Positions 3,853 to 33,544 of a stretch of 64,000 nucleotides of DNA are shown here, piece by piece (the first letter of the stretch is position 1; every line of letters begins with the position of its first letter). The notes below the pieces were generated by a model, which saw nothing but the letters and a program-made list of their open reading frames with translations, made no database searches and was not told the DNA's origin. The position numbers and the translations under genes were made by a program. The DNA is taken from IMG/VR virus record IMGVR_UViG_3300028734_000019, positions 1-64,000 of that record. The stretch is one strand, 5' to 3'. Source of the DNA: an uncultured virus (IMG/VR IMGVR_UViG_3300028734_000019). Taxonomy: Duplodnaviria; Heunggongvirae; Uroviricota; Caudoviricetes.

Positions 3853-4277
3853 TGATTACAAGCTTTGATACTAAATCAACAGATCATAATTTTTATTTTC
3901 CATCTGTTGCAGGGCCAGAAGGTAAAATTCCTTTTGCTGGAACTAATTATGGGGAGGAACCAAGGATAAAGAACTTCAAGCAATATTTTGGAGAATATCG
4001 AAAAGGATCTGATAAATTTGGCAAATTAGTTGAAAGAATAATGGAATTTTTAAGATTACCAGAATTTAAAGATCGTCTTAGTGAGAACGATGGACTAAAA
4101 TTTTTAATTTATGACTTTGAATCAAGATCACATATTAAAGTAGAAAAAATTAAACAATTATTAAGTAATGATACAAACCTTTATAGCTTTGATATTAAGA
4201 TAGATGATAAATTCATAACATTTTCTAATATAAACAAAACTAGAAAAGGTAGATATGTATCAGGTAGAAAAGATTAA
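3852..4277 (+). CDS. Hypothetical protein
   Basis: 141 aa ORF translationally coupled to the upstream gene (TAATG). Confidence 0.6.
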   Translation: MITSFDTKSTDHNFYFPSVAGPEGKIPFAGTNYGEEPRIKNFKQYFGEYRKGSDKFGKLVERIMEFLRLPEFKDRLSENDGLKFLIYDFESRSHIKVEKIKQLLSNDTNLYSFDIKIDDKFITFSNINKTRKGRYVSGRKD

Positions 4278-4282
4278 ATCAT

Positions 4283-4753
4283 ATGATAAAAAATTATAGT
4301 GACTATTCTCAAAAATTAAAAACTAATAATTTAGCAAAATCTATATGTGATACATTTACATCTGATACTAATTTTAAAGATTTTGATTGTTTAATATATA
4401 AGGATATACCAACAATATCAAAAAAAGATTATTCTTGTAATATAGAATTCTTTACTAAAGATGAAAAACAGTTAATATATAATTTAGATATTAGTTTTTG
4501 TTTAGATTCTGATAATTATTATATAATATGGATTCGTGATTCTTGGGTAGATTTAGAATATAAATATTTGAAAGTTTTTATGATTTTCATTCAATTCTTA
4601 ATATATTCATTTCATATAATTTCTGGTGGTAGTAAATCATATTTTTCATTTCAAGGTAAATCAGATGATGTTAATGATTTGGACGAAATAATAACTAATA
4701 TTAACCCTGAAAGATATGAAATTTTTAAACAATCAAAAAAATTTAATGTATAA
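4283..4753 (+). CDS. Hypothetical protein ending SKKFNV
   Basis: 156 aa; shared C-terminal motif. Confidence 0.55.
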   Translation: MIKNYSDYSQKLKTNNLAKSICDTFTSDTNFKDFDCLIYKDIPTISKKDYSCNIEFFTKDEKQLIYNLDISFCLDSDNYYIIWIRDSWVDLEYKYLKVFMIFIQFLIYSFHIISGGSKSYFSFQGKSDDVNDLDEIITNINPERYEIFKQSKKFNV

Positions 4754-4770
4754 CTTTTTAATAAATATTT

Positions 4771-6078
4771 ATGAATAAAAATTTAACTTTTGTGATATTA
4801 TTATCAATTGCTGCATTATCACTAGCAGGTACTGCAGCATATTTTTCGATATTTGGATTGACAAAATTATTTGCATCTGCAGGATTAGGTATAACTATAT
4901 TAGCAGCAGCTTTAGAATTTTCTAAGTTAGTCACAGTATCTTACGTTTATCGTTATTGGAAAAATATAAAGCCAATACTAAGAGCATTCTATGTTTTTGC
5001 TGTTGTGTTTATTATGTTTTTGACATCAGTAGGTATATATGGATTTTTGACTGGTGCTTATCAGCAATCTGCCAATAAATTAGAAAGTAGAGATTCTCAA
5101 ATAAAAATAGTTGAAAGTAAAAAATCACTATTTAAAGTTCAGTTAGATATGATAAATAAATCTATTGAGAGTTCAAATAATAGAATTAATACATTATCTG
5201 GATTGAGAACACAGCAAGAAAAACGTTTAGATGATTTATATACTAAAAAAAATAATAGTATCGCAAAAAGTGCAGAAAGTCATATAACAGGATCAGATAA
5301 TCAGATAAATATGATTAATTCTGATATCACCTTAAAAATGAAGCAAGCAAGTGTATATAATGACTCTATTTCATATTACGAGCAGAAGATTATTAATCTT
5401 AAGTCATCTGATGCAACAAATGAAATAGGTCCTTATAAATTTGTCGCAAAATTAACAGGAATACCTATTGATAATTTAGTTAATATAGTAGCATTACTTA
5501 TTATATGCGTGTTTGATCCATTGGCGATTACTTTATTAATAGGTATTAATCAATTAACAGAAAAAAAGGAGGACGATGAAGTTGAAGAAGATGAAGAAGT
5601 TGAAGAAGTTGAAAAAGAAAAATATAATAAAATAGTTATAGATGTTATAAACTATATTATTAATAATCCTAAATCTTTTGATATAAATACCAATATTGTA
5701 GAACCTATTGTAGAACCTATTGTAGAACCTATTGTAGAACCTATTGTAGAACCTATTGTAGAACCTATTGTAGAACCTATTGTAGAACCTATTGTAGAAC
5801 CTATTGTAGAACCTATTGTAGAACCTATTGATTATATGGATGAAATATACAATGAAATACGTGAGGAATGGTATAATGAAGAATTAGAATATCATTTTGA
5901 TAAATTGAATAATACTGAATTGGATGAAGAACCATTGGTAGAGGAATTAGAAGAATTTATGACTTTGTTTGATAATAATAATAACAACGATGATGATCTT
6001 ATAACAGTAATAAAAAGAGATGATTCTATAACTGAGTATTACTACGAAAATAATAAAAAGAAAAAACCACTCAATTGA
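4771..6078 (+). CDS. Multi-pass membrane protein with coiled coil and acidic, IVEP-repeat tail
   Basis: Three N-terminal hydrophobic segments, a coiled coil, a fourth TM segment, then an acidic tail. Confidence 0.7.
   Translation: MNKNLTFVILLSIAALSLAGTAAYFSIFGLTKLFASAGLGITILAAALEFSKLVTVSYVYRYWKNIKPILRAFYVFAVVFIMFLTSVGIYGFLTGAYQQSANKLESRDSQIKIVESKKSLFKVQLDMINKSIESSNNRINTLSGLRTQQEKRLDDLYTKKNNSIAKSAESHITGSDNQINMINSDITLKMKQASVYNDSISYYEQKIINLKSSDATNEIGPYKFVAKLTGIPIDNLVNIVALLIICVFDPLAITLLIGINQLTEKKEDDEVEEDEEVEEVEKEKYNKIVIDVINYIINNPKSFDINTNIVEPIVEPIVEPIVEPIVEPIVEPIVEPIVEPIVEPIVEPIVEPIDYMDEIYNEIREEWYNEELEYHFDKLNNTELDEEPLVEELEEFMTLFDNNNNNDDDLITVIKRDDSITEYYYENNKKKKPLN
5695..5830 (+). repeat. Perfect 12-bp tandem repeat (ATTGTAGAACCT)x11 encoding IVEP
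   Basis: Read directly from the sequence; no variation between units. Confidence 0.95.
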
Positions 6079-23819: not shown

Positions 23820-24146
23820 ATGCCAAAATCAAAAAATAGAAAAGGACACGATTCTAAAGTTAGAAAATATAACGAAAATAAGAAAGTACAGCAAGAAATA
23901 TTGAAGAAGAAAATGATGGAAAATTATATTAAACTTCAACAGGAGATTATGGCTGGACAAGCACATACATCAACAGAAGATGCTATTGATTCAGATATAA
24001 ATATTGATGAATTGAATACTATAGATGATATATCATTAATTGATATTGATAATCTAAGTGTTATACCAGAAGTAGTTGAAGAAAGTATAATTTCTCCTGA
24101 ATCGGTAGAAATTGTTGATGCTGAATTAGTCGATACTAATAAATAA
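23820..24146 (+). CDS. Hypothetical protein with basic N-terminus and acidic C-terminus
   Basis: MPKSKNRKGH... followed by a D/E-rich tail. Confidence 0.6.
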   Translation: MPKSKNRKGHDSKVRKYNENKKVQQEILKKKMMENYIKLQQEIMAGQAHTSTEDAIDSDINIDELNTIDDISLIDIDNLSVIPEVVEESIISPESVEIVDAELVDTNK

Positions 24147-24155
24147 TTTAATTAT

Positions 24156-25196
24156 ATGATAACCATAACAAACAATAAAATCTATTATAGCGAAGAATCA
24201 ATTTTATACCTAGATTCAATAGATAATGCTGATGTTATTGACCCAAACGATATATTACTTTTTTTGTCAGATACTGTTGAATTAGGTGAGAATTTAATAT
24301 TTAAAAGATTGTTTGATATTATATCACATAATGTTAATGATTTTAATGATATTTTTTATTCATCATTAGATGGATATTATATTGATCCATTTTTACAAGA
24401 AATTGAAAATAATCCAACTGACAAACTTGATATGGATTATCTAGAAGTTAATTGGAGCTGTAATAAGTATGATAATGAATTAAATGTAACATCTACAATT
24501 CACGGCGTATCAAATAACAATTCTGATTTTTATTCAATAGACTTTGTATCTCTTAATAATTTAAAAAAATTAAACATTTCACTCAATAAAAATTTCACTG
24601 TATATGATTATAATAAATTGATAGAGGGTAAAAATGAAGAAGATTCAAAATTTGAGTTAGGAGAAAAAACATTTACATTATTTGATTTGTATAACGCAAT
24701 ATTTAGTGAAATAACATTTCATGGTGGTCCTCTTGATAAAAAAGAAAGATTTGAAGAGCTAGAAAAATGTATTGAAGACGAAGATATTAATCCTGAAGAA
24801 TATAAAGAATTGAAAAGTTCTACACTAAATGATTTGATTGACAAATATGAAAAAGAGGATAAATATTTGGTTAAATATAAAGAGTTTAGAAGTAGAGTTG
24901 ATGAGAATAGAATTCAAATTAATGAAAATTTATCAAAATTGAAAGATTGTTTGTTAAATAAATTGAAGATTTATGATGATATTTATAACTGTGAAGGTAG
25001 TATAAAAAAATATTATAAAAAACTAACTAATATTGAATTTAATATGCAAACTCTTTACGGAGAAGATGAAGATATATTATTTCATAAATTTTGGCAAACT
25101 CCAAGATGTACATGTCCAAAAATTAATAATATTGAAATTTATCCTTCAAAAAAATGTTTAATTGATGATAACTGTCCTATTCATGGTAAAAATTAA
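24156..25196 (+). CDS. Hypothetical protein with C-terminal Cys/His metal-binding motif
   Basis: HKFWQTPRCTCP ... CPIHG. Confidence 0.6.
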   Translation: MITITNNKIYYSEESILYLDSIDNADVIDPNDILLFLSDTVELGENLIFKRLFDIISHNVNDFNDIFYSSLDGYYIDPFLQEIENNPTDKLDMDYLEVNWSCNKYDNELNVTSTIHGVSNNNSDFYSIDFVSLNNLKKLNISLNKNFTVYDYNKLIEGKNEEDSKFELGEKTFTLFDLYNAIFSEITFHGGPLDKKERFEELEKCIEDEDINPEEYKELKSSTLNDLIDKYEKEDKYLVKYKEFRSRVDENRIQINENLSKLKDCLLNKLKIYDDIYNCEGSIKKYYKKLTNIEFNMQTLYGEDEDILFHKFWQTPRCTCPKINNIEIYPSKKCLIDDNCPIHGKN

Positions 25197-25217
25197 AAAA
25201 TTAAAAAAGCTTCATAT

Positions 25218-25499
25218 TTAAATATGAAGCTTTTTTAATTTCTCTTTTCTTGTGTGCTTAATAGAAAACTCTAAACATTCTTCTGAAATACTTTCATAAG
25301 TTACTCCATTTATTGTCTTATTTGTCATCATTCCTATGTTATCAGAGTCCCAATAATCAGTATAGTAACAATTACCATATTCTGAAAATCCAATAATTGA
25401 CATAGGAATTTTATGATACCAAGGATATTCTTTAATGTCATTGCAAATTTCAGAACAAATAACAATGTCACCTATTTTAAATTTTCTTTCCATTTTCAA
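25218..25499 (-). CDS. Small SH3/KOW-like protein with RxxKLxxL tag
   Basis: FKIGDIVIC ... TRKEKLKKL. Confidence 0.55.
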   Translation of the reverse strand: MKMERKFKIGDIVICSEICNDIKEYPWYHKIPMSIIGFSEYGNCYYTDYWDSDNIGMMTNKTINGVTYESISEECLEFSIKHTRKEKLKKLHI

Positions 25500-25773
25500 T
25501 TGAATCTAAATGCTCTTTTTCAACTTCAGTCCATTTTTGAATAGGACATGTTCCTCCGATATCTTGATATGTTTTAGGTGTGAATATTTTTGCTTTTAAC
25601 GCACAGCCACATAAATTACATCTTGCAAATATATCAATCTCTCCTATATTTAACATCTCTTTATGCTCACACCCATCACATATTTCAATTCTTTTACTTG
25701 CAAGATCTGATTGCTCATCATTTGGGTTGAATGATATTCTCCAAGATTTGAAAATTTCTTCAATTTTATTCAT
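25477..25773 (-). CDS. Small Cys-rich zinc-binding protein
   Basis: RIEICDGC ... CNLCGC ... CPIQKW. Confidence 0.6.
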   Translation of the reverse strand: MNKIEEIFKSWRISFNPNDEQSDLASKRIEICDGCEHKEMLNIGEIDIFARCNLCGCALKAKIFTPKTYQDIGGTCPIQKWTEVEKEHLDSIENGKKI

Positions 25774-25848
25774 TTATTTAATTTTTTAATTTTAAGTTTA
25801 TTAATTAACTTATATATAAAATTAAATTAGTCCAAATTGATTTTTTTG

Positions 25849-25920
25849 TATGCCTAGAAGGACTCGAACCTTCAACTCATCATCCGTAGTGATACGTGTT
25901 ATCCATTACACTATAAGCAC
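25849..25920 (-). tRNA. tRNA-Arg (ACG)
   Basis: Manual cloverleaf: GTGCTTA/TAGGCAT acceptor, TATCA-CTACGGA-TGATG anticodon arm, GAAGG-TTCGAGT-CCTTC T arm. Confidence 0.85.
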
Positions 25921-25934
25921 ATGTAAGTATTTAC

Positions 25935-26420
25935 TCATTTATTTTTAATGACTTGATTAATGTTTTTTAATTTTTCTTTTCTTGAGTATGCTAATTTGTA
26001 TTTCATAACTCCTTCTATTTTATTATTTAAACATTGTTCCATTAAATATTCAGATTGATGTATTACATATTCTTTAGAACATTTTTCAATACTATCTCCA
26101 TAATGATTAGTATCAAATCCTATCATCCAATAATTATCTAATTTTTTATAATTATCTATTGTTACATCACCATCAATTTCTAAATTATCAATCCATTCTA
26201 AAAATGATTTAGAATCAAAAAATTGACCATATGTTAATCCTCCATGTACACTTATTGTATTCATATCATCATATGAAACTCCATATGATGGATGATTATT
26301 AGGTATTAATATATAACCATTACCCCATCCGAATTCCATTTTTAATGAAAATGTACTTAGTAGAGGTAAATTTTTAGTGATATAATTCTCAATTACTAAT
26401 GTGTAAATTCCGTATTTCAT
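25935..26420 (-). CDS. Conserved phage protein (VHGGLTY ... WMIGFDTNH) with RxxKLxxI tag
   Basis: Motifs common in phage hypotheticals; ends SRKEKLKNI. Confidence 0.6.
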   Translation of the reverse strand: MKYGIYTLVIENYITKNLPLLSTFSLKMEFGWGNGYILIPNNHPSYGVSYDDMNTISVHGGLTYGQFFDSKSFLEWIDNLEIDGDVTIDNYKKLDNYWMIGFDTNHYGDSIEKCSKEYVIHQSEYLMEQCLNNKIEGVMKYKLAYSRKEKLKNINQVIKNK

Positions 26421-26483
26421 GTTGATTTTTTAAATAAAAACAAAGATACACAATTTTTTTGTATATTCAATATTAAAAATTTT

Positions 26484-26894
26484 TTATTGTTGAATAACTA
26501 CATTATATGTAATTCCACCAGATTTCTTTTTTATTGCGTTTTTTAATTCTTCACTGTCTTTAATATCTTCCAAATTATCATTTTTAATATCATCTTTGAT
26601 TTTACTAATATCAGAATCAACATCCTTTAATTCTCCTTTTATTTCACCTACATTACCTACTATATTATCAACATCAGTATCAACATTTTTTATATTTTGT
26701 TGTATGTCATAAATAATATTTTTTATTTCACTAACTTCATTTGTTATTTGTGCAGTTATTGTGTCTATTTTTTTAGATAACTCTTCTATCTTTGTAATAA
26801 TATCATCAGTTCTTAATGATATATTTTCTTGCTCCGACTTAATATTTTCTACTAAATTATCCATATCATTTGTCTTTATGTATAAATAGTACAA
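26484..26894 (-). CDS. Coiled-coil protein, paralogous to the soluble part of 26936
   Basis: RTDDIITKIEELSKKI versus RTDAIISKIEELSEKI; heptad repeats. Confidence 0.6.
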   Translation of the reverse strand: MYYLYIKTNDMDNLVENIKSEQENISLRTDDIITKIEELSKKIDTITAQITNEVSEIKNIIYDIQQNIKNVDTDVDNIVGNVGEIKGELKDVDSDISKIKDDIKNDNLEDIKDSEELKNAIKKKSGGITYNVVIQQ

Positions 26895-26935
26895 ATTATA
26901 TTAAAATTTTTATACAATGATAATTTTAATGTAAA

Positions 26936-27475
26936 TTATTTTTTTTCTTTTTCTATATTATCTTGAATGTTATTTATGTCAAAGTCTACATTTTTTAAAT
27001 CTTCTTGTATATTATCAACATGATTTTGTATTTCATTAACGTCTGTGTCAGCATACTTTAACTCAATATCTATATCATCAACATGACTTTTTATGTCACT
27101 AACATCAGTATCTACATCTTTTAATTCAATATCAATATCAACTACATGAGTTTTTATGTCATCAACATCAACATTTATATGCTCTGTCATAGCTTCTATT
27201 TTTTCGGATAATTCTTCAATCTTTGATATTATTGCATCAGTTCTACTTCCACTTATCTTAGCAATATATCCTAAAACTGGTAATGCTACTCCTTGAAAGA
27301 AAACTGATACTAAATATTGCATCCATGCAACTAAACCTGATGGCTGACTAAAAAATAATGGAAATATAACTAATATTGTAATTATCCAAAACATTGTCAT
27401 ACTAGATAATGAATCTGATAAAAATATTGCAAATTTTTCTTGTGATGATTTAAATTTCTCGACTAATTTATTCAT
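26936..27475 (-). CDS. Two-TM membrane protein with acidic heptad-repeat coiled coil
   Basis: Two hydrophobic segments followed by DIDIELKxxDTDV repeats. Confidence 0.6.
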   Translation of the reverse strand: MNKLVEKFKSSQEKFAIFLSDSLSSMTMFWIITILVIFPLFFSQPSGLVAWMQYLVSVFFQGVALPVLGYIAKISGSRTDAIISKIEELSEKIEAMTEHINVDVDDIKTHVVDIDIELKDVDTDVSDIKSHVDDIDIELKYADTDVNEIQNHVDNIQEDLKNVDFDINNIQDNIEKEKK

Positions 27476-27543
27476 ATTTTTTTTATTTATATATAAATAG
27501 TGATAATTATATAAATAATATAAATTGTATTAAATATTTTTTG

Positions 27544-27626
27544 TGGTACTAGTTGGGCTCGAACCCACAACCTCCGAAGAGATCAGTTTTACATACTGAC
27601 ATGACTACCTGTGTCATATTAATCAC
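27544..27626 (-). tRNA. tRNA-Tyr (GTA)-like, imperfect acceptor stem
   Basis: TCAGT-ATGTAAA-ACTGA anticodon arm, long variable arm, GGTTCGAGCC T loop; two acceptor mismatches. Confidence 0.6.
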
Positions 27627-27635
27627 ATATTTTTG

Positions 27636-27760
27636 TGGTAGCAGATGGACTCGAACCATCAACTTCTGAGACATCGGCCCAGCACTCTATCCTTCGCTCG
27701 TTTCAAATTATTTATTCTAGTTTCATAATTATCCCCTTTGTGCTTTTGAGTTACACTACC
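27636..27760 (-). tRNA. tRNA-Ile (GAT)-like with 60-nt D-loop
   Basis: GGTAGTG/TGCTACC acceptor, ACTC/GAGT D stem enclosing 60 nt, CTGGG-CCGATGT-CTCAG anticodon arm, GATGG-TTCGAGT-CCATC T arm. Confidence 0.65.
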
Positions 27761-27773
27761 TTGTTGTTTATTG

Positions 27774-27852
27774 TACTGCCGAAGGGACTTGAACCCTCAT
27801 ACACCAATTACCTTGTTAATGACTGGATATAAGCCAGTGGGGATACGACAGT
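27774..27852 (-). tRNA. D-armless tRNA-Ile (TAT)-like RNA
   Basis: ACTGTCG/CGGCAGT acceptor, 7-nt linker TATCCCC, ACTGG-CTTATAT-CCAGT, 23-nt variable region, GAGGG-TTCAAGT-CCCTT. Confidence 0.6.
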
Positions 27853-27865
27853 GTGTTTTTTATTG

Positions 27866-27942
27866 TTGGTGAAGTGGGAATTGAACCCACATGTGACCAA
27901 TTAACCTTTCTACTACTTATCAGGCAGAGGGTATATTCACCA
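27866..27942 (-). tRNA. D-armless tRNA-Ile (GAT)-like RNA
   Basis: TGGTGAA/TTCACCA acceptor, linker TATACCCT, CTGC-CTGATAA-GTAG, long variable region, GTGGG-TTCAATT-CCCAC. Confidence 0.6.
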
Positions 27943-27953
27943 ATGTTATTTAG

Positions 27954-28027
27954 TAGTCCTGGTGAGACTTGAACTCACGACCTCCATCTTATCAGGATGA
28001 CAATCTAACCGACTGATATACAAGACT
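27954..28027 (-). tRNA. tRNA-Ile (GAT)
   Basis: Canonical cloverleaf, AGTCTTG/CAGGACT, TCATC-CTGATAA-GATGG. Confidence 0.9.
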
Positions 28028-28094
28028 ATTTTAGTTTATTTTTATTAATCATAACATACTATTAGTATGATACTAGTCATAATAATAAACTCTG

Positions 28095-28165
28095 TACCGA
28101 ATATGAGGTTCGAACTCATTTGGATTTCCTTATGAGAGAAATCTCTTTTCCACTAAGCTTCGGCA
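28095..28165 (-). tRNA. tRNA-Met/Ile2 (CAT), compact atypical D arm
   Basis: TTTCT-CTCATAA-GGAAA anticodon arm, ATGAG-TTCGAAC-CTCAT T arm. Confidence 0.7.
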
Positions 28166-28177
28166 TAATGTTCATTG

Positions 28178-28251
28178 AGGCCAAGGTGGGACTCGAACCC
28201 ACACAATATAGTTTTGCAGACTATCCCTTTATTCCATTCGGGCACTCGGTC
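28178..28251 (-). tRNA. tRNA-Cys (GCA)
   Basis: ATAGT-CTGCAAA-ACTAT anticodon arm, U discriminator, canonical T arm. Confidence 0.9.
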
Positions 28252-28258
28252 ATTTTTG

Positions 28259-28340
28259 TGGAAATAGAGGGACTCGAACCCACGAACTTGTGAAAGAACT
28301 GATTTACAGTCAGTTGCAATTGCCACTATGCGATATTTCC
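28259..28340 (-). tRNA. tRNA-Tyr (GTA)
   Basis: GGAAATA/TATTTCC acceptor, ACTGA-CTGTAAA-TCAGT, long variable arm. Confidence 0.9.
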
Positions 28341-28350
28341 ATTATCTTTG

Positions 28351-28436
28351 CGGTTCTGAGGAAAGTCGAATTCCCTATATCCCTTACGAGAAGCCTGAGT
28401 GACAGTCAGGTACACCAGCCGTTATGCGCCAGAACC
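28351..28436 (-). tRNA. tRNA-Asp (GTC) with long variable arm
   Basis: GGTTCTG/CAGAACC acceptor, CCTGA-CTGTCAC-TCAGG, 18-nt variable region, G discriminator. Confidence 0.75.
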
Positions 28437-29246
28437 ATTTTTATTTTTTATTTCATAATGTATTTCTGTGTGACAATTTTTACACACTAACATACATTTA
28501 TCAACTTCTTTTTTTAATCTTTCATATGAATAAGATTTTGCACTTATTCCAAAATCTTTTTGAGTAGGATCTTTATGATGAAAATCAAATACATCTATAC
28601 ATTTATCATATCCACACCTTTCGCATTTTCCTCCTTTATATTCAACAAGTTTCCTTTTTTTATCTTTTCTCCAACTAATAACATTATTTACAATATCATT
28701 TTTTCTTTTTATTTTATACTCTTCTTTAGATAATTTTTCTTTTTTATTTATAATTAAAATTTTAGATATTTGATATCTACCAATATTGAATTTTTTAGAT
28801 ACTTTTCTTGTACTTTTACATTCATCATAGTATTTTTGCATTTCAATAACGTCATCATTATTAACGTTTTCATATATTTTACAATAATTATTTTTTTTAT
28901 AATTACCATCATTGATATTATTTAATCTGCATATTTTTTTAATTTTATCTAAAGATAATTTAGTTTTTTCTATTATTTCTTCATATGTATTACCATTTAT
29001 TCGATATTCAATAACTTTTTTAAAAATCTCATCAGATATCTCATCACCAAAATCTATATTTGGTATATTTTTTAATTTTTTTAAATTTGATAATTTTGTG
29101 TTTTTTTTATTTAATTCAATATTATTATATAATTTTTTACAATGATAAGATATTGTACCTTTTGAACAATTTAATAATTCTGATATTTCATTGTATGTTT
29201 TTCCTTCTTTTCTTAATGATAATATTTTAGTTTTAATGCTTTCCAT
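28422..29246 (-). CDS. HNH homing endonuclease with N-terminal HTH repeats, inserted in the tRNA array
   Basis: GGKCERCGY ... FDFHHKDP ... CMLVCKNCH. Repeated GxTYxEI HTH motifs. Confidence 0.85.
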   Translation of the reverse strand: MESIKTKILSLRKEGKTYNEISELLNCSKGTISYHCKKLYNNIELNKKNTKLSNLKKLKNIPNIDFGDEISDEIFKKVIEYRINGNTYEEIIEKTKLSLDKIKKICRLNNINDGNYKKNNYCKIYENVNNDDVIEMQKYYDECKSTRKVSKKFNIGRYQISKILIINKKEKLSKEEYKIKRKNDIVNNVISWRKDKKRKLVEYKGGKCERCGYDKCIDVFDFHHKDPTQKDFGISAKSYSYERLKKEVDKCMLVCKNCHTEIHYEIKNKNGSGA

Positions 29247-29326
29247 AATTTATTTATATTTTTATTGTATATATAAAAATATATAATATTAAAAAAGATT
29301 AAAGTTTAAAGTTAATCATTTATTCG

Positions 29327-29398
29327 CGGGAGTGGGGAATTGCGACATCCCAACACTTTCGTTAACAGCGAAACGCTCTACCTTTGAGCTACACTCCC
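29327..29398 (-). tRNA. tRNA-Asn (GTT), atypical T loop
   Basis: GGGAGTG/CACTCCC acceptor, TTTCG-CTGTTAA-CGAAA; T loop reads GTCGCAA. Confidence 0.8.
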
Positions 29399-29404
29399 TT
29401 TTTG

Positions 29405-29492
29405 CGCACTGGATAGGATTCGAACCTACGTTGAAGATTACTCTTACTGGTTTAACAGACCAGACTTTTCGACCGACTAAAGCAACCAATGC
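29405..29492 (-). tRNA. tRNA-Asn (GTT) with long variable arm
   Basis: GCATTGG/CCAGTGC acceptor, CTGGT-CTGTTAA-ACCAG, variable hairpin AAGA-GTAA-TCTT. Confidence 0.8.
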
Positions 29493-29515
29493 ATTTTTAA
29501 TTTTTTGATAATAAG

Positions 29516-29588
29516 CGGGATATACGAGATTCGAACTCGCTCCGTGCACCGTGACGGGGTGACATCTTAACCATTTGACCTATATCCC
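29516..29588 (-). tRNA. tRNA-Asp (GTC)
   Basis: GGGATAT/ATATCCC acceptor, CACC-CCGTCAC-GGTG, canonical T arm. Confidence 0.85.
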
Positions 29589-29596
29589 ATTTTTTG

Positions 29597-29668
29597 TAAT
29601 GCGTATGAGAGTTGAACTCATCTTGCTAGGTTGAAAACCTAGAGTACTTTCCGATATACGAACGCATC
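29597..29668 (-). tRNA. tRNA-Glu (TTC)
   Basis: GATGCGT/ACGCATT acceptor, CTAGG-TTTTCAA-CCTAG. Confidence 0.85.
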
Positions 29669-29678
29669 GTGTTTTTTG

Positions 29679-29761
29679 TGGGAGCAGCCAGATTCGAACT
29701 GACGACCTAAAAGGTTACAAAATTTACAGTTTTGCGCCTGACCAATTTGAGCATTACTCCC
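29679..29761 (-). tRNA. tRNA-Tyr (GTA)
   Basis: GGGAGTA/TGCTCCC acceptor, CAAAA-CTGTAAA-TTTTG, long variable arm. Confidence 0.88.
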
Positions 29762-29802
29762 ATTTATTATTCATTATCTAGTATTTCAAAGAGCATTTAA
29801 AA

Positions 29803-29843
29803 ATAAAAAACTCAGTTCTTATTTTTAAGAACTGAGTTTTTTT
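29803..29843 (-). terminator. Intrinsic terminator of attenuator B, directly upstream of the tRNA array
   Basis: 11-bp stem CTCAGTTCTTA/TAAGAACTGAG, 4-nt loop, U tract. Confidence 0.85.
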
Positions 29844-29868
29844 ATTATTCACATAATAATTTTTTAAC

Positions 29869-30003
29869 TTATCCAGTTCTTCCTACATTATTTTCATCAT
29901 CATTAATATAATCATTATTAATCATATTAATACATATCTCTTCCATATTGTAATTAATATTACAATTGCGATAAATGCTGTATATGTTATTAATGTTATT
30001 CAT
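29869..30003 (-). CDS. Attenuator leader peptide B (44 aa), not in the ORF track
   Basis: MNNINNIYSIYRNCNINYNMEEICINMINNDYINDDENNVGRTG*. Its last codons contain AAGAACTG, complementary to the terminator 5' arm. Confidence 0.8.
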   Translation of the reverse strand: MNNINNIYSIYRNCNINYNMEEICINMINNDYINDDENNVGRTG

Positions 30004-30032
30004 GATATTTACTTTTAATTTATTATTTTTAA

Positions 30033-30111
30033 AAAAACTATTTTGAGTTTAGCTGCTAGTGTACTCGCATTGTCCCCATTACCAGTGAGGTGCTGTTCAA
30101 TATAGTTTTTT
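30033..30111 (-). ncRNA. Candidate structured RNA between tRNA-fMet and leader B
   Basis: GC-richer island closed by the AAAAAACTAT...ATAGTTTTTT inverted repeat, with internal hairpins CCTCA/TGGGG and TGC/GCA. Confidence 0.4.
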
Positions 30112-30116
30112 AATTG

Positions 30117-30188
30117 TTGCGCAGGCTGGACTCAAACCAGCGTTCTCAAGGTTATGAGCCTTGCGGGGTATCACTTCCCTACCGCGCG
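30117..30188 (-). tRNA. Initiator-like tRNA-fMet (CAT)
   Basis: C1:A72 mismatch (CGCGCGG/CTGCGCA), CAAGG-CTCATAA-CCTTG anticodon arm. Confidence 0.85.
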
Positions 30189-30195
30189 ATATATT

Positions 30196-30429
30196 TTAAT
30201 CTTTTTCTTTATCTATTTTCTTATAAAGTTTCTTAGCAATCTCTTTTGCTTTTGAATTCATTCCTTTTTCTGTTTTAGGAACTTCACTATAATCAATTTT
30301 GATTTTATCAGCAAACATTATAAATTTTTCAGTTCTATCAGATTTCCTTTTCAGTTCATCATAATTTTTTTGAATTTTATTTACTACTTCTGCTGATTCA
30401 TCAATTTTATTTTCTTTAACTTTTTTCAT
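30196..30429 (-). CDS. Small basic hypothetical protein inside the attenuated operon
   Basis: Likely start ATG 30429 (MKKVKEN). The longer track start overlaps terminator A. Confidence 0.55.
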   Translation of the reverse strand: MKKVKENKIDESAEVVNKIQKNYDELKRKSDRTEKFIMFADKIKIDYSEVPKTEKGMNSKAKEIAKKLYKKIDKEKD

Positions 30430-30432
30430 AAC

Positions 30433-30466
30433 AAAAAATCCAGTCATTTTTTAATTGACTGGATTT
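30433..30466 (-). terminator. Intrinsic terminator of attenuator A
   Basis: AAATCCAGTCA/TGACTGGATTT stem, 9-nt loop, U tract. Confidence 0.8.
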
Positions 30467-30491
30467 ATAATTATAGGCATAAGCCTTAATT

Positions 30492-30581
30492 TTATTTCTC
30501 AGTCAATTGGGATGTATCATCAATATTATTGATAATTTCGTTGTTACACATTTCCTCATTTATATATAGATTACGATACAT
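30492..30581 (-). CDS. Attenuator leader peptide A (29 aa), not in the ORF track
   Basis: MYRNLYINEEMCNNEIINNIDDTSQLTEK*. Its 3' codons contain AATTGACTG, complementary to CAGTCAATT in terminator A. Confidence 0.75.
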   Translation of the reverse strand: MYRNLYINEEMCNNEIINNIDDTSQLTEK

Positions 30582-30695
30582 CTTGTTTTGCTTTTTTATA
30601 TTAGTTTTTATTTTCTATAAAGTTTATTCTTTGTTATATATAATAGAAAAAAAGTCATTTTTTTCTATTTTTTATTTTCTTTTAATATGATAGTA

Positions 30696-30727
30696 CAAAA
30701 GTAATAAAAAGTTTTCATTCTACCAAA
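30696..30727 (-). promoter_or_regulatory. Bacteroidota sigma-A type promoter (TTTG-N20-TACTTTTG), copy 1
   Basis: Exact -33/-7 spacing, pointing into leader A and the tRNA operon. Confidence 0.7.
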
Positions 30728-30794
30728 CATTTTTCAATCTTTTTTTTATATTAATGAAAAACTATCATTTTTTTCTACTTTTAATATGATAGTA

Positions 30795-30826
30795 CAAAAG
30801 TAATAAAAAGTTTTTAATCTACCAAA
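30795..30826 (-). promoter_or_regulatory. Bacteroidota sigma-A type promoter (TTTG-N20-TACTTTTG), copy 2
   Basis: Near-identical direct repeat 99 bp from copy 1. Confidence 0.7.
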
Positions 30827-30859
30827 TGTTTCTAAACTTATTATTTAAATAAATAAAAA

Positions 30860-31096
30860 TTATAATATTGGTTCAATGACTATTGAATTTTCATAATTTT
30901 TTAATTCATCATAATATTCTTCTTCATCACATTCGTTTAGTTCACAATATTCTTCTTTTGATTCTCCCATATACACTTTTATGTACTCTGTTTTTGCATC
31001 ACTGGCTTCTTTAGGAGTATTAAATATACCTATGAAATCATTGTCTGACATTGTACCAGTGCTTGTGTAATAATCTACTTTATATTTCATATTCAA
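30860..31096 (-). CDS. Small acidic hypothetical protein
   Basis: 78 aa ORF, E/D/Y-rich. Confidence 0.55.
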   Translation of the reverse strand: MNMKYKVDYYTSTGTMSDNDFIGIFNTPKEASDAKTEYIKVYMGESKEEYCELNECDEEEYYDELKNYENSIVIEPIL

Positions 31097-31232
31097 TTAT
31101 TTTTAATTTGGAGTATAAAAGTAATAAAAAATTATCAATTTACAAAATGTTTATAATCTTATTTTTATAAAAATAACCTTTCTTTTCAATTAAGAAAAAA
31201 AGGTTATTTTTTATACTATATTATTTTTTATA

Positions 31233-31403
31233 TTACATTGCAAGTTCTTTTTCTTTCTTTGCATAAAATGAGAAGCCACCAACTTCTTTATTTATTCCTG
31301 GAACTCTGGTGAAATTTTTAAGGTTTACTACCTCTTTAATAACATTATACTCATTTTGAGTCAAAAAGAAAACTTTTGTTGATTTACTTGAATTAGTTGT
31401 CAT
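31233..31403 (-). CDS. 56-aa protein, tandem duplicate of 31497-31661 (not in track)
   Basis: MTTNSSKSTKVFFLTQNEYNVIKEVVNLKNFTRVPGINKEVGGFSFYAKKEKELAM. Confidence 0.75.
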   Translation of the reverse strand: MTTNSSKSTKVFFLTQNEYNVIKEVVNLKNFTRVPGINKEVGGFSFYAKKEKELAM

Positions 31404-31496
31404 AATGTTTAATTTAAATGATTTAAATGATTATTGTTTTATTTTCAATACAAAATTACTATATTTTTTTAAATTGTCAAAATATTTTATGATTTT

Positions 31497-31661
31497 TTAT
31501 AGAACATTTTCTTTCTTTGCATAAAATGAGAAGCCACCAACTTCTTTATTTGCACCTGGAACTCTGGTGAAATTTTTTAGATTTACAACTTCTTTAATTC
31601 CATTGTATTCTGATTTAGTCAAAAAGAAAACTTTTTCTGATTTACTTGAATTAGTAGTCAT
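31497..31661 (-). CDS. 54-aa protein, tandem duplicate
   Basis: MTTNSSKSEKVFFLTKSEYNGIKEVVNLKNFTRVPGANKEVGGFSFYAKKENVL. Start inferred from the paralogue. Confidence 0.75.
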   Translation of the reverse strand: MTTNSSKSEKVFFLTKSEYNGIKEVVNLKNFTRVPGANKEVGGFSFYAKKENVL

Positions 31662-31839
31662 AATTTTTAATTTAGATGATTTAAATGATTGTTGTTTTAA
31701 TTTCAATACAAATGTACTTCGGTTTGAATTGTTTACCAAATATTTTATTGTTTTTTAATATTTTACTTATATTTTCATTTATATTTTATAGTTTGATAAC
31801 ATTACAATATAAATATATACTGAAAATGATATTATAAAC

Positions 31840-32082
31840 ATGAAAATGATGAAAAATTTTATAGATTATAAATCTATGAATGAAAAATGGGATGAGAAAG
31901 TTAAAGTTAAACATACTGGTGAACATGCAGGTAAAACTATTGATGAGTTGGAGAGTGAATTATCATCACTTAAAAAAAGAAGTAAGAAATATCAAGATGA
32001 AGGCAAAGATGTTCCAAAGAGTATTATTGATCAAGAACAAGAAATTAATTTTGCTATTAGAGCAAAAAGAAATTGGAAATAA
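31840..32082 (+). CDS. Small protein with capsid-targeting-like N-terminus
   Basis: MKNFIDYKSMNE..., TATATA upstream, terminator hairpin at 32081-32109 downstream. Confidence 0.6.
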   Translation: MKMMKNFIDYKSMNEKWDEKVKVKHTGEHAGKTIDELESELSSLKKRSKKYQDEGKDVPKSIIDQEQEINFAIRAKRNWK

Positions 32083-32115: not shown

Positions 32116-32640
32116 TCAATGACAATTGACAGTTATATTTTTTAATTTGTTGAATATTCCATCATGTTCAAGTGCACTATAATATTCTCCATCATTATCT
32201 GAAAAACTAAAACAATACATCACTCCATCATTTACCTCTTTACCATCAATAACTTGAAGTTTTAATTTTCTTACATTGAAAAATTCTTTAAGTAATTTTT
32301 TTGAATATTTATCTTTAGCTTCTGCAAATGCTTCCCATCTTTCATTTCTATCTTCAATATATTTAAAATCATCAAAATCAGGAGCATCATTTTCCATTTC
32401 CAAATATCCATTCGATATTATTTCACTTGCCTTATCAATATCATTCTTAGTTTGATCACATATATCATTCCAGATAGTTTCTGAAACTTTATTTACAGAA
32501 TAATTTTCATCTCCATAATATAACTGTTCTTCCCTAAAAAGAATTTTTTTTACATCTTCCATACATTTCGGTTCAAATGGGAAGATAACTACAAAACTAC
32601 TTGATGATGAATTGCTTACAAATCCAGTTCTTATTTTCAT
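32116..32640 (-). CDS. GFVSNSSSSSF-leader family protein 1
   Basis: Starts MKIRTGFVSNSSSSSFVVI. Confidence 0.8.
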   Translation of the reverse strand: MKIRTGFVSNSSSSSFVVIFPFEPKCMEDVKKILFREEQLYYGDENYSVNKVSETIWNDICDQTKNDIDKASEIISNGYLEMENDAPDFDDFKYIEDRNERWEAFAEAKDKYSKKLLKEFFNVRKLKLQVIDGKEVNDGVMYCFSFSDNDGEYYSALEHDGIFNKLKNITVNCH

Positions 32641-32641
32641 A

Positions 32642-32833
32642 CTATTTTTTATTATCTGTTTTATCTGTTTTATCTGGTTTATCTTTTTTATCTGTTAAAT
32701 CTATTCTAATCTCTGACTTTTTAAAAATTGCGTTGAATATTTCCACTATAAAACTTCCAATTACAGAAATTATGAAAAAACAAAATATAAATGTCCAAAA
32801 ATCTGAAGTAGCATATTTTAATAATTCTAACAT
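32642..32833 (-). CDS. Small membrane protein
   Basis: One hydrophobic segment and a DKT-repeat tail; has its own TAATTTTG promoter element. Confidence 0.55.
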   Translation of the reverse strand: MLELLKYATSDFWTFIFCFFIISVIGSFIVEIFNAIFKKSEIRIDLTDKKDKPDKTDKTDNKK

Positions 32834-32905
32834 ATATTTTTATTTTTATTTTTATTTACAAAATTATAAAAAATATTTGATATTATAATATTTTAATCAA
32901 AAATA

Positions 32906-33544
32906 TTATAAATTTTTAGTTATTTCATCTAATTTATCTTTTCTTTTATATACTGTATTACATACTGGACATATAAGACCGTGCTTTTTTGTTTCCCACA
33001 TATAATTAAAATCTCCTTTTTTATCACATATTGGACAAGATTCATAACTTTCTTTTCCTAATAATTGATAATCTAAAGAATAATAATCATTATCAAAAGA
33101 ATAAAATTCACTATCACCATCAAGTAGACTGGTTATGCTGCACCATTCATCATCATCTTCCTTATATTTTTGTAATAATATTCGTAATTCTGATTTTGCA
33201 TCATCAGTTAATTTAGTGCTAAATTGCCATAAATCCCAATCTTCGTTATTACTAGTAGAAACTAAATAGCAATCTGCTACTTTTTTTATATAAGTATCAT
33301 AGTTACAACTTTGAAATGTTATTGCCTGATTTTTGTCTATATTTTTTAGCCCATTAATGTATAAATCATGCTCTTTTATTCTATATTTATCATATTGTTT
33401 ATCTCTTCCAGTATTACCCATATAATCATCATATTTCGATTTAATCATATGCGTAGCAAGATCACGTAAACTTTCAAAATTGTTGTTAGAAATTATAAAG
33501 CTACTAGATGATGAGTTACTTACAAATCCATTTCTTATTTTCAT
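32906..33544 (-). CDS. GFVSNSSSSSF-leader family protein 2, with zinc ribbon and RxxKLxxI tag
   Basis: MKIRNGFVSNSSSSSFII ... CPIC ... CPVC ... RKDKLDEI. Confidence 0.8.
   Translation of the reverse strand: MKIRNGFVSNSSSSSFIISNNNFESLRDLATHMIKSKYDDYMGNTGRDKQYDKYRIKEHDLYINGLKNIDKNQAITFQSCNYDTYIKKVADCYLVSTSNNEDWDLWQFSTKLTDDAKSELRILLQKYKEDDDEWCSITSLLDGDSEFYSFDNDYYSLDYQLLGKESYESCPICDKKGDFNYMWETKKHGLICPVCNTVYKRKDKLDEITKNL

Follow-up and report, generated by a model that had tools for sequence, protein, structure and literature searches.

Multivalent leader-peptide attenuators occur in the enterobacterial ilvGMEDA, ilvBN and thr operons, and leader-peptide attenuation also operates at trp, his, leu and pheA. 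The pheST attenuator of E. coli, with its pheM leader, controls an aminoacyl-tRNA (transfer RNA) synthetase, and T-box riboswitches, which have no open reading frame (ORF), bind uncharged tRNA directly via one specifier codon. Here we describe a locus of an uncultured virus (IMG/VR record IMGVR_UViG_3300028734_000019) in which a short ORF (leader B), an antiterminator element at its 3' end and an intrinsic terminator (terminator B) precede a block of tRNA genes. Judging from the sequence, these parts are likely to form a ribosome-mediated transcription attenuator gating the Tyr/Glu/Asp/Asn/Cys/Ile tRNA block, and the giant phage that carries them probably holds these tRNAs back until ribosomes are short of them.

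The purpose and timing of tRNA genes in phages are an open question; it has been suggested that phage tRNAs compensate for codon usage, replace host tRNAs that were degraded, or help to evade defences that cleave tRNA. The DNA that we analyzed (the window; G+C content, 24.6%) comprises the initial 64 kb of a virus record of 76,108 bp, whose completeness was estimated by CheckV at 11%; contigs of its relatives reach 346 kb. The best named matches were uncultured phage genomes of 634,780 to 735,411 bp, of which LR745206.1 (634,780 bp) and LR756501.1 (735,411 bp) are public records without annotation. In PMC7162821, genomes of 634, 636, 642, and 735 kb are presented as the largest phages known and are predicted to replicate in Bacteroidetes.

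Results

Leader B, Terminator B, and the Complement between Them

An earlier reading of this DNA (the sequence-only reading) had pointed to a 44-codon ORF at 30003->29869 on the minus strand, and the ORF is present as claimed. Leader B (29869-30003) runs from an ATG start to a TAA stop; codons 2-39 make up its putative sensor part, and the last five codons overlap the switch. The amino acids N, I, Y, M, D, E and C fill 37 of positions 1-39, whereas K, L and F are absent from the peptide. The set of seven accounts for a fraction of 0.418 of the residues in the 73 long ORFs of the record, giving a probability of 2.6e-12 for 37 or more of 39, while K, L and F together account for 0.243, giving a probability of 4.7e-6 for none in 44. 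Among the 97 ATG-initiated ORFs of 35-60 codons found in the six frames of the record, leader B ranked first (0.95, the next being at 0.67).

The leader peptide could not be assigned to any family. Pfam returned no family match for leader B or for leader A, a paralogous ORF described below, and the only PHROG match of the leaders was weak and of low complexity (E = 0.0036). The frame of leader B was open in four sequence variants, all three indels among them (3, 3, and 12 nucleotides, nt) being in frame and several of the substitutions synonymous. Leader B lacks a Shine-Dalgarno motif, which is the norm in this record, since such a motif precedes only 3 of the 73 long ORFs. The leaders also contain Arg codons, CGC in leader B and CGT in leader A, both of the form CGY; CGC represents 3 of the 422 Arg codons in the long ORFs of the record.

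Between leader B and the tRNAs lies the strong terminator that had been proposed there. Terminator B (29805-29842, minus strand) consists of a 17-bp stem with a 4-nt loop, followed by a T run, and ends 43 nt before the first tRNA; it reads as a terminator on the plus strand too. It is one of seven terminator-like sites in 9 kb, where 1.2 would be expected, and exact copies of its sequence were found in seven viral contigs. The two strong terminators of the stretch, at 29805-29842 and 25196-25243, are both symmetric (A run, stem, T run) and terminator-like on both strands.

The putative antiterminator element B (29873-29881, minus strand) can form eight Watson-Crick pairs and one G-U pair with 29835-29827. 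The exact 8-nt complement between 29881-29874 and 29834-29827, in the 5' arm of terminator B, was thus found as claimed, with the G-U pair in addition. When dinucleotides were shuffled in the 72 nt upstream, 18 of 2000 shuffles yielded a complement of this length.

The Downstream tRNA Block

In the block that would be gated by terminator B (27545-29761, minus strand), 13 of the 14 tRNA and tRNA-like genes counted in the sequence-only reading were found. With default settings, ARAGORN found six of them, and Rfam added three at or above the gathering score; four more were detected below threshold only, by Rfam at 27.5 and 20.5 bits and by ARAGORN once its threshold had been lowered. The order of the genes is Tyr, Glu, Asp, Asn, Asn, an HNH gene, Asp-like, Tyr, Cys, CAT, Ile, Ile-like, Ile-like, and Tyr-like. 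The anticodons are GTA for the three Tyr genes, TTC for Glu, GTC for the two Asp genes, GTT for the two Asn genes, GCA for Cys, and GAT for the three Ile genes (two of them aberrant), besides one CAT.

Several tRNAs of the block deviate from the usual structure, having long variable arms or no D arm. For instance, the Asn tRNA at 29492-29404 has a long variable arm, and the Ile-like gene at 27942-27866 combines a long variable arm with the loss of most of the D arm. Such genes may be decoys, pseudogenes, or tRNAs that are processed differently.

The gene inserted in the block (28422-29246, minus strand) encodes an HTH-HNH homing endonuclease, with a PHROG HNH match at E = 1e-23 and HTH domains in Pfam; related copies are present in many large phages. 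Among the relatives, homing endonuclease genes occupy different sites of the tRNA region: the HTH-HNH gene in the window, and another ORF (4250-5100) in the related locus L006, where it sits between the gene for an 83-residue protein and tRNA-Met.

A tRNA-Arg (ACG) gene, detected by both ARAGORN and Rfam at 25848-25920 (minus strand), could decode both CGC in leader B and CGT in leader A. The sequence-only reading had placed it downstream of the array on the same strand, and so it is, at a distance of 2 kb, but three protein ORFs intervene between the array and this gene, and it is uncertain whether both belong to the same transcript.

Leader Composition and tRNA Content across the Family

Modules of this type were collected with a generic detector, which looked for a hairpin with a T run, an ATG-initiated ORF of 15-60 codons ending at most 80 nt upstream, and a tRNA at most 260 nt downstream. 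Its input included 118 loci fetched solely through an 18-nt tRNA-Tyr anchor, 79 of them of at least 5 kb. The detector yielded 53 modules, 39 of which were non-redundant, and at least one module was present in 23 of the 79 anchor loci of at least 5 kb. The gap between stop codon and stem, for which the detector would have accepted 0-80 nt, was 17-32 nt in 51 of the 53 modules.

In the related phages, the tRNA region is split into blocks, each with its own leader and terminator and often with its own host-type promoter. In one class of leaders, located before Tyr and Glu tRNAs at nine loci, Glu codons come after three Tyr codons; in another, located before Ile(TAT), Gly, and Ala tRNAs at seven loci, the codons include ATA, GCG, and GGN. 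The two classes occur in the same phages, LR745206.1 being an example that carries both, and have their N- and C-terminal parts in common. LR756501.1 resembles the window in that its Ile, Cys, Asp, Asn, and Tyr tRNAs follow a leader of the Asn/Asp/Tyr/Cys/Ile type.

In the 39 non-redundant modules, a fraction of 0.502 of the leader residues had a cognate tRNA in the downstream block, compared with 0.354 (standard deviation, 0.017) when the blocks were permuted; the observed value was reached in none of 5000 permutations. When the leader DNA was read in frames +1 and +2, the match dropped to 0.359 and 0.344, respectively. Hence leader composition tracks tRNA content in homologous arrays, as had been anticipated, with different classes before different blocks and with both the permutation and the frame control in support.

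A perfect complement of at least 7 nt between the 5' arm of the terminator and the 75 nt upstream was found in 16 of the 39 modules, but in only 6 of 258 control terminators, i.e., terminators with no tRNA following (Mann-Whitney p = 4e-9 for the difference between modules and controls).

Conservation in Close and Distant Relatives

Close relatives were retrieved through the neighboring 83-residue protein (10 loci) and through the exact terminator sequence (seven loci). The stretch conserved among them extends from the start of the ORF to about 45 nt past the terminator, and both flanks differ, because homing endonuclease genes have been inserted at different places. The upstream neighbor of the module can be one tRNA-Met gene, two tRNA-Met genes, or a protein gene, and the tRNA-like genes downstream vary too, yet the ORF-plus-terminator module was kept in every relative found.

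The more distant locus L012 (62% identity in the neighbor protein) has a 30-codon ORF that shares the central motif but is followed by a different terminator stem. At the 3' end of this ORF there is an 8-nt complement to its own stem; the reading frame over the element is unlike that in the window, and the nucleotides are kept, which points to selection acting on the RNA.

To reach distant homologues we used patterns that covered only the 3' arm of the terminator and what follows, with neither leader nor element in the query. All true hits nonetheless showed a small ORF whose end lay a short way upstream of the hairpin. Stem sequences vary among these distant lineages, and a matching complement of 7-9 nt is present at the 3' end of each ORF. 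Antiterminator and terminator thus change together, as foreseen in the sequence-only reading: the complements follow unrelated stems across lineages, and ordinary terminators are mostly devoid of them. An attempt to examine column-wise covariation in a MAFFT alignment of nine switch regions was abandoned, the upstream elements being at different distances and out of register.

Other searches added little to this picture. A synteny search with a neighboring protein of 161 residues returned no more than two relatives that were identical and a single locus that has no tRNAs. A nhmmer profile of five modules, run against 80 tRNA-Tyr-anchored loci, recovered only lineages already known, the divergence of the modules being too great for a sequence profile; the detector based on structure and ORF did find diverged modules.

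At L199 (1929-2040), a Tyr/Glu-type leader holds a copy of the terminator 5' arm, rather than its complement. This suggests that the L199 lineage uses a different pairing scheme, with competition for the 3' arm.

The Putative Attenuator A and the Proposed Operon

Leader B appears to be the second of two paralogous attenuators in one operon. A second module at 30581-30433 is probably what the sequence-only reading called attenuator A. Its leader (leader A, 30492-30581, minus strand) was found by the generic detector in an identical relative, and the coordinates in the window were read from the sequence. It is a 29-codon ORF paralogous to leader B, the last seven codons of which overlap the switch; 21 of its codons 1-22 are from the amino-acid set of the array plus Arg CGT. 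The corresponding antiterminator element A (30500-30508, minus strand) is a 9-nt complement of the 5' arm of terminator A (30433-30466, minus strand; hairpin and T run) and ends 5 nt before the stop codon. A complement of 9 nt was reached in 5 of 2000 shuffles, and the pairing of element A was present in the best folds of both the nascent and the full-length RNA.

Upstream of leader A, a Bacteroidota-type promoter pattern (-33 box, 20-nt spacer, -7 box) was matched twice on the minus strand, by a distal copy at 30795-30826 and a proximal copy at 30696-30727, both belonging to a tandem repeat of roughly 100 nt. The proximal copy, some 115 nt upstream of the leader A start codon, is where the operon is proposed to start, and promoters like it lie ahead of the leaders in relatives.

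Between terminator A and tRNA-Met there is a 77-codon ORF (30196-30429, minus strand) that has no family match in Pfam or PHROG and is conserved in 10 related loci; its longer, 83-residue reading would start inside terminator A. The tRNA-Met (CAT) gene follows at 30116-30188 (minus strand; ARAGORN, and Rfam with 55.2 bits). Its first acceptor pair is mismatched, as in bacterial initiator tRNAs, so that it is initiator-like, and relatives carry one or two copies at this place. This gene, which the sequence-only reading had not mentioned, lies upstream of leader B (30188-30116), and therefore leader B sits within the tRNA region and not at its head. The proposed order of the operon would then be promoter (30727-30696), leader A and terminator A, 77-codon ORF, tRNA-Met, leader B and terminator B, and the tRNAs; leader A and terminator A would gate the 77-codon ORF and tRNA-Met.

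Predicted Folds with a Ribosome on the Leader

To model the ribosome, a 30-nt footprint was imposed on the fold of the nascent RNA. For leader B, the predicted antiterminator persisted with the A site at codons 1-36 and was lost from codon 38 to the stop; for leader A, it persisted with the A site at codons 1-20 and was lost further on. In both cases the switch-over falls close to the end of the sensor-type composition, which is at codon 39 in leader B and codon 22 in leader A. Constrained folding had been expected to give an antiterminator that forms with the ribosome upstream and is lost with the ribosome near the stop, and this is the behavior that emerged.

Host Signals and Neighboring Genes

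The Bacteroidota promoter pattern had 15 matches in the window against 4.4 expected, a number reached in none of 100 shuffles. The -7 box of the Bacteroidota promoter shows conservation in both Flavobacterium and Bacteroides, according to PMC7641319. Both the excess of matches and the quoted box fit a Bacteroidota-type host, and the scarcity of Shine-Dalgarno motifs is in line with the prediction of Bacteroidetes hosts for the related giant phages; a host among the Bacteroidota is probable. When the named phage collection was searched at the DNA level, using the window region and the modules of two relatives as queries, no cultured phage with the module was identified, and beyond the giant uncultured phage records the matches in that search were to tRNA and HNH genes only.

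Three pairs of paralogous ORFs were noticed in the surroundings, the members of each pair adjoining one another. They encode two coiled-coil-like proteins with repeated acidic motifs (26484-27475, minus strand), two small proteins of 56 and 80 residues (31233-31739), and proteins of 174 and 212 residues with a common N-terminal Ser-rich motif (32116-33544).

Discussion

From these parts we infer that the leader is translated, that transcription can terminate at the hairpin, and that readthrough is regulated, the sequence-only reading having offered host anticodon-nuclease defence or starvation as conceivable triggers. RNA polymerase would transcribe the leader while a ribosome translates it. 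A fast ribosome, arriving at the last codons or at the stop, would cover element B, whereupon the terminator hairpin would form and transcription would end in the T run. A ribosome held at codons 1-36, almost all of which specify Asn, Ile, Tyr, Met, Asp, Glu, or Cys, with one rare Arg CGC, would instead leave the element free. The free element would pair with the loop-proximal half of the terminator 5' arm and block nucleation of the hairpin, allowing the polymerase to enter the tRNA genes. The new tRNAs would read exactly the codons at which the ribosome had stalled and relieve the stall, amounting to a negative feedback that supplies tRNA on demand.

A number of observations weigh against this mechanism. 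Leader B lacks a promoter of its own, and the transcript would be cut when the tRNA-Met ahead of it is processed. The folds of the lineages revealed no counterpart to the 1:2 pause hairpin known from the trp leader; AT-rich hairpins do occur inside the ORF, but none is conserved across lineages. Without a pause hairpin, the model predicts readthrough when the leader is not translated. The antiterminator was part of the best fold of the nascent RNA in all five lineages, but the terminator 5' arm pairs upstream nearly as often in dinucleotide shuffles, the observed pairing being reached by fractions of 0.05, 0.03, 0.05, 0.11, and 0.53 of the shuffles in the five lineages. Best-fold pairing was rejected as a test, since it did not discriminate from shuffled upstream sequence, and it was replaced by the comparison of exact complements with control terminators.

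The family-wide data contain further points of this sort. Shared ancestry of the phages makes the permutation test overstate independence, an effect to which the reading-frame control is not subject. The leader of L034, taken from its first ATG, matches its own tRNA block poorly (0.30). In 11 of the 39 representative modules there is no complement of at least 5 nt; some of these are probably false modules, but clear family members (L188 and L212) are among them. Several relatives have 12-22 nt between the end of the element and the stop codon, and there a ribosome at the stop would abut the element rather than cover it. Finally, the stretch between terminator B and the first tRNA, discussed next, contains a conserved box and a sigma-70-like match and could hold an internal promoter.

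That stretch matters for a more ordinary arrangement, in which a small protein gene with its own terminator would be followed by a separate promoter driving the tRNAs, the 8-nt complement being incidental. The sequence-only reading had counted on there being no independent promoter at 29803-29761. This stands for promoters of the host type, as none of the 15 matches in the window is located between terminator B and the first tRNA, but a sigma-70-like match (9 of 12) is present at 29801-29773, and a conserved 10-nt box at 29783-29792 (minus strand), downstream of terminator B, is common to the window, L012 and L034, relatives that were found by other means. Furthermore, the same type of terminator also ends ordinary protein genes in related phages. 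Sigma-70-like matches of that class, however, occur at chance frequency (73 found, 77.6 expected). The 10-nt box was considered as a promoter and rejected because it is absent after the terminators of four clear family members (L186, L188, L207, and L210), and in three others (L171, L187, and L208) it precedes the first tRNA-like gene by only 3-4 nt, which leaves too little room for a promoter of that gene. An ordinary protein gene would also leave unexplained why the composition matches the tRNA content in one frame only and why complements are often found ahead of tRNA blocks but seldom at other terminators, and its peptide belongs to no family; on balance we regard this arrangement as unlikely. 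As for a chance ORF in an AT-rich, low-complexity spacer beside a terminator, the low G+C content does make Asn, Ile, and Tyr codons common, but the wide margin by which leader B leads the small ORFs of the record, the lack of Lys, Leu, and Phe, which make up 24% of residues, the conservation of the open frame, and the recurrence of the pattern throughout the family make such an accident hardly credible.

Other explanations retain the leader but change what it does. It might be translated with an output other than attenuation, either affecting the processing or stability of the precursor through the position of the ribosome or yielding a peptide that acts on the translation machinery. Such an output would account for the conservation of the N- and C-terminal leader parts across classes, would give scope for a role of the post-terminator box, and would agree with elements lying outside the footprint of a stop-codon ribosome in several lineages. 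Yet a strong intrinsic terminator and a competing complement are the conserved RNA features, and the central part of the peptide is free to vary with tRNA content, arguing against a peptide with a fixed target, so that we find this possibility rather improbable. Alternatively, the leader RNA could be a ribosome-independent switch that binds tRNAs or a protein directly, like a T-box. Codons are complementary to anticodons, and a codon match could therefore serve direct tRNA binding; the element is, moreover, kept at the nucleotide level where the frame differs, as in L012. T-box leaders, though, use a single specifier and not dozens of codons, and an Rfam scan of 24000-32000 detected no T-box at E up to 1, nor any other cis-regulatory family near its gathering score, the hits being tRNAs and a few weak, unrelated ones. 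An RNA acting without ribosomes would also not be expected to have an ATG and a stop codon in every module, with the stop at a near-fixed distance from the hairpin, to show only in-frame indels among the close variants of leader B, or to match the tRNA content in a single frame. This switch seems to us very unlikely.

If attenuation by the translating ribosome is accepted, a more general interpretation can be put forward, to which we incline with some reserve: large phages would organize their tRNA genes as demand-controlled blocks, each with a promoter, a codon-matched leader, and a switchable terminator, together making up a codon-resolved tRNA homeostat. Such a homeostat would sense a shortage of usable host tRNA, whether due to codon mismatch, host shut-off, or an anticodon-nuclease defence, and would replace exactly the species that are missing. 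The window would contain two sensors in series, and the design would recur with other codon sets in many uncultured phages, including those with the largest genomes.

Were this true, a phage would measure tRNA supply and respond to it, and the rival explanations of phage tRNA genes could be tested by reporter assays. The textbook mechanism of amino-acid operons would extend to tRNA genes and to viruses. The modules would offer a natural modular part for codon-specific sensing of translation, and annotators of phage tRNA arrays would gain a rule for locating operon boundaries and small ORFs that have gone unannotated.

Relation to Known Systems

Full-text literature searches, whose coverage did not extend to subscription journals, found no description of leader-peptide control of tRNA genes, and in the main text of PMC7162821 neither words beginning with "attenuat" nor the word "leader" occur. 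Modules with the same architecture as that of the window, but with different sequences, are present in LR745206.1 and LR756501.1.

The locus shares with the attenuators of the ilvGMEDA, ilvBN, and thr type a short ORF rich in the sensed codons, an intrinsic terminator ahead of the genes under control, an antiterminator that competes with it at or close to the 3' end of the ORF, and the involvement of several amino acids per leader. It differs from the enterobacterial attenuators in that the genes regulated would be tRNAs and a homing endonuclease, and not biosynthetic enzymes or an aminoacyl-tRNA synthetase, and in that the leader would sense seven or eight amino acids at once. Furthermore, the element is borne by a phage with a probable Bacteroidota host, lacks a detectable 1:2 pause hairpin, and would come as two attenuators in series in one operon.

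Similarly to pheST, the leader peptide would sense the supply of charged tRNA and control genes of the translation apparatus. However, pheST senses one amino acid and its product is a protein, whereas the products in the window are the tRNAs themselves, so that the feedback would be closed directly at decoding. T-box riboswitches sense tRNA status and choose between terminator and antiterminator, as the locus would. The module would work like the attenuators of amino-acid operons while belonging to no described operon family: the mechanism, multivalent leader-peptide attenuation, is of a known kind, and what would be new are tRNA genes as its targets and a giant phage as its carrier.

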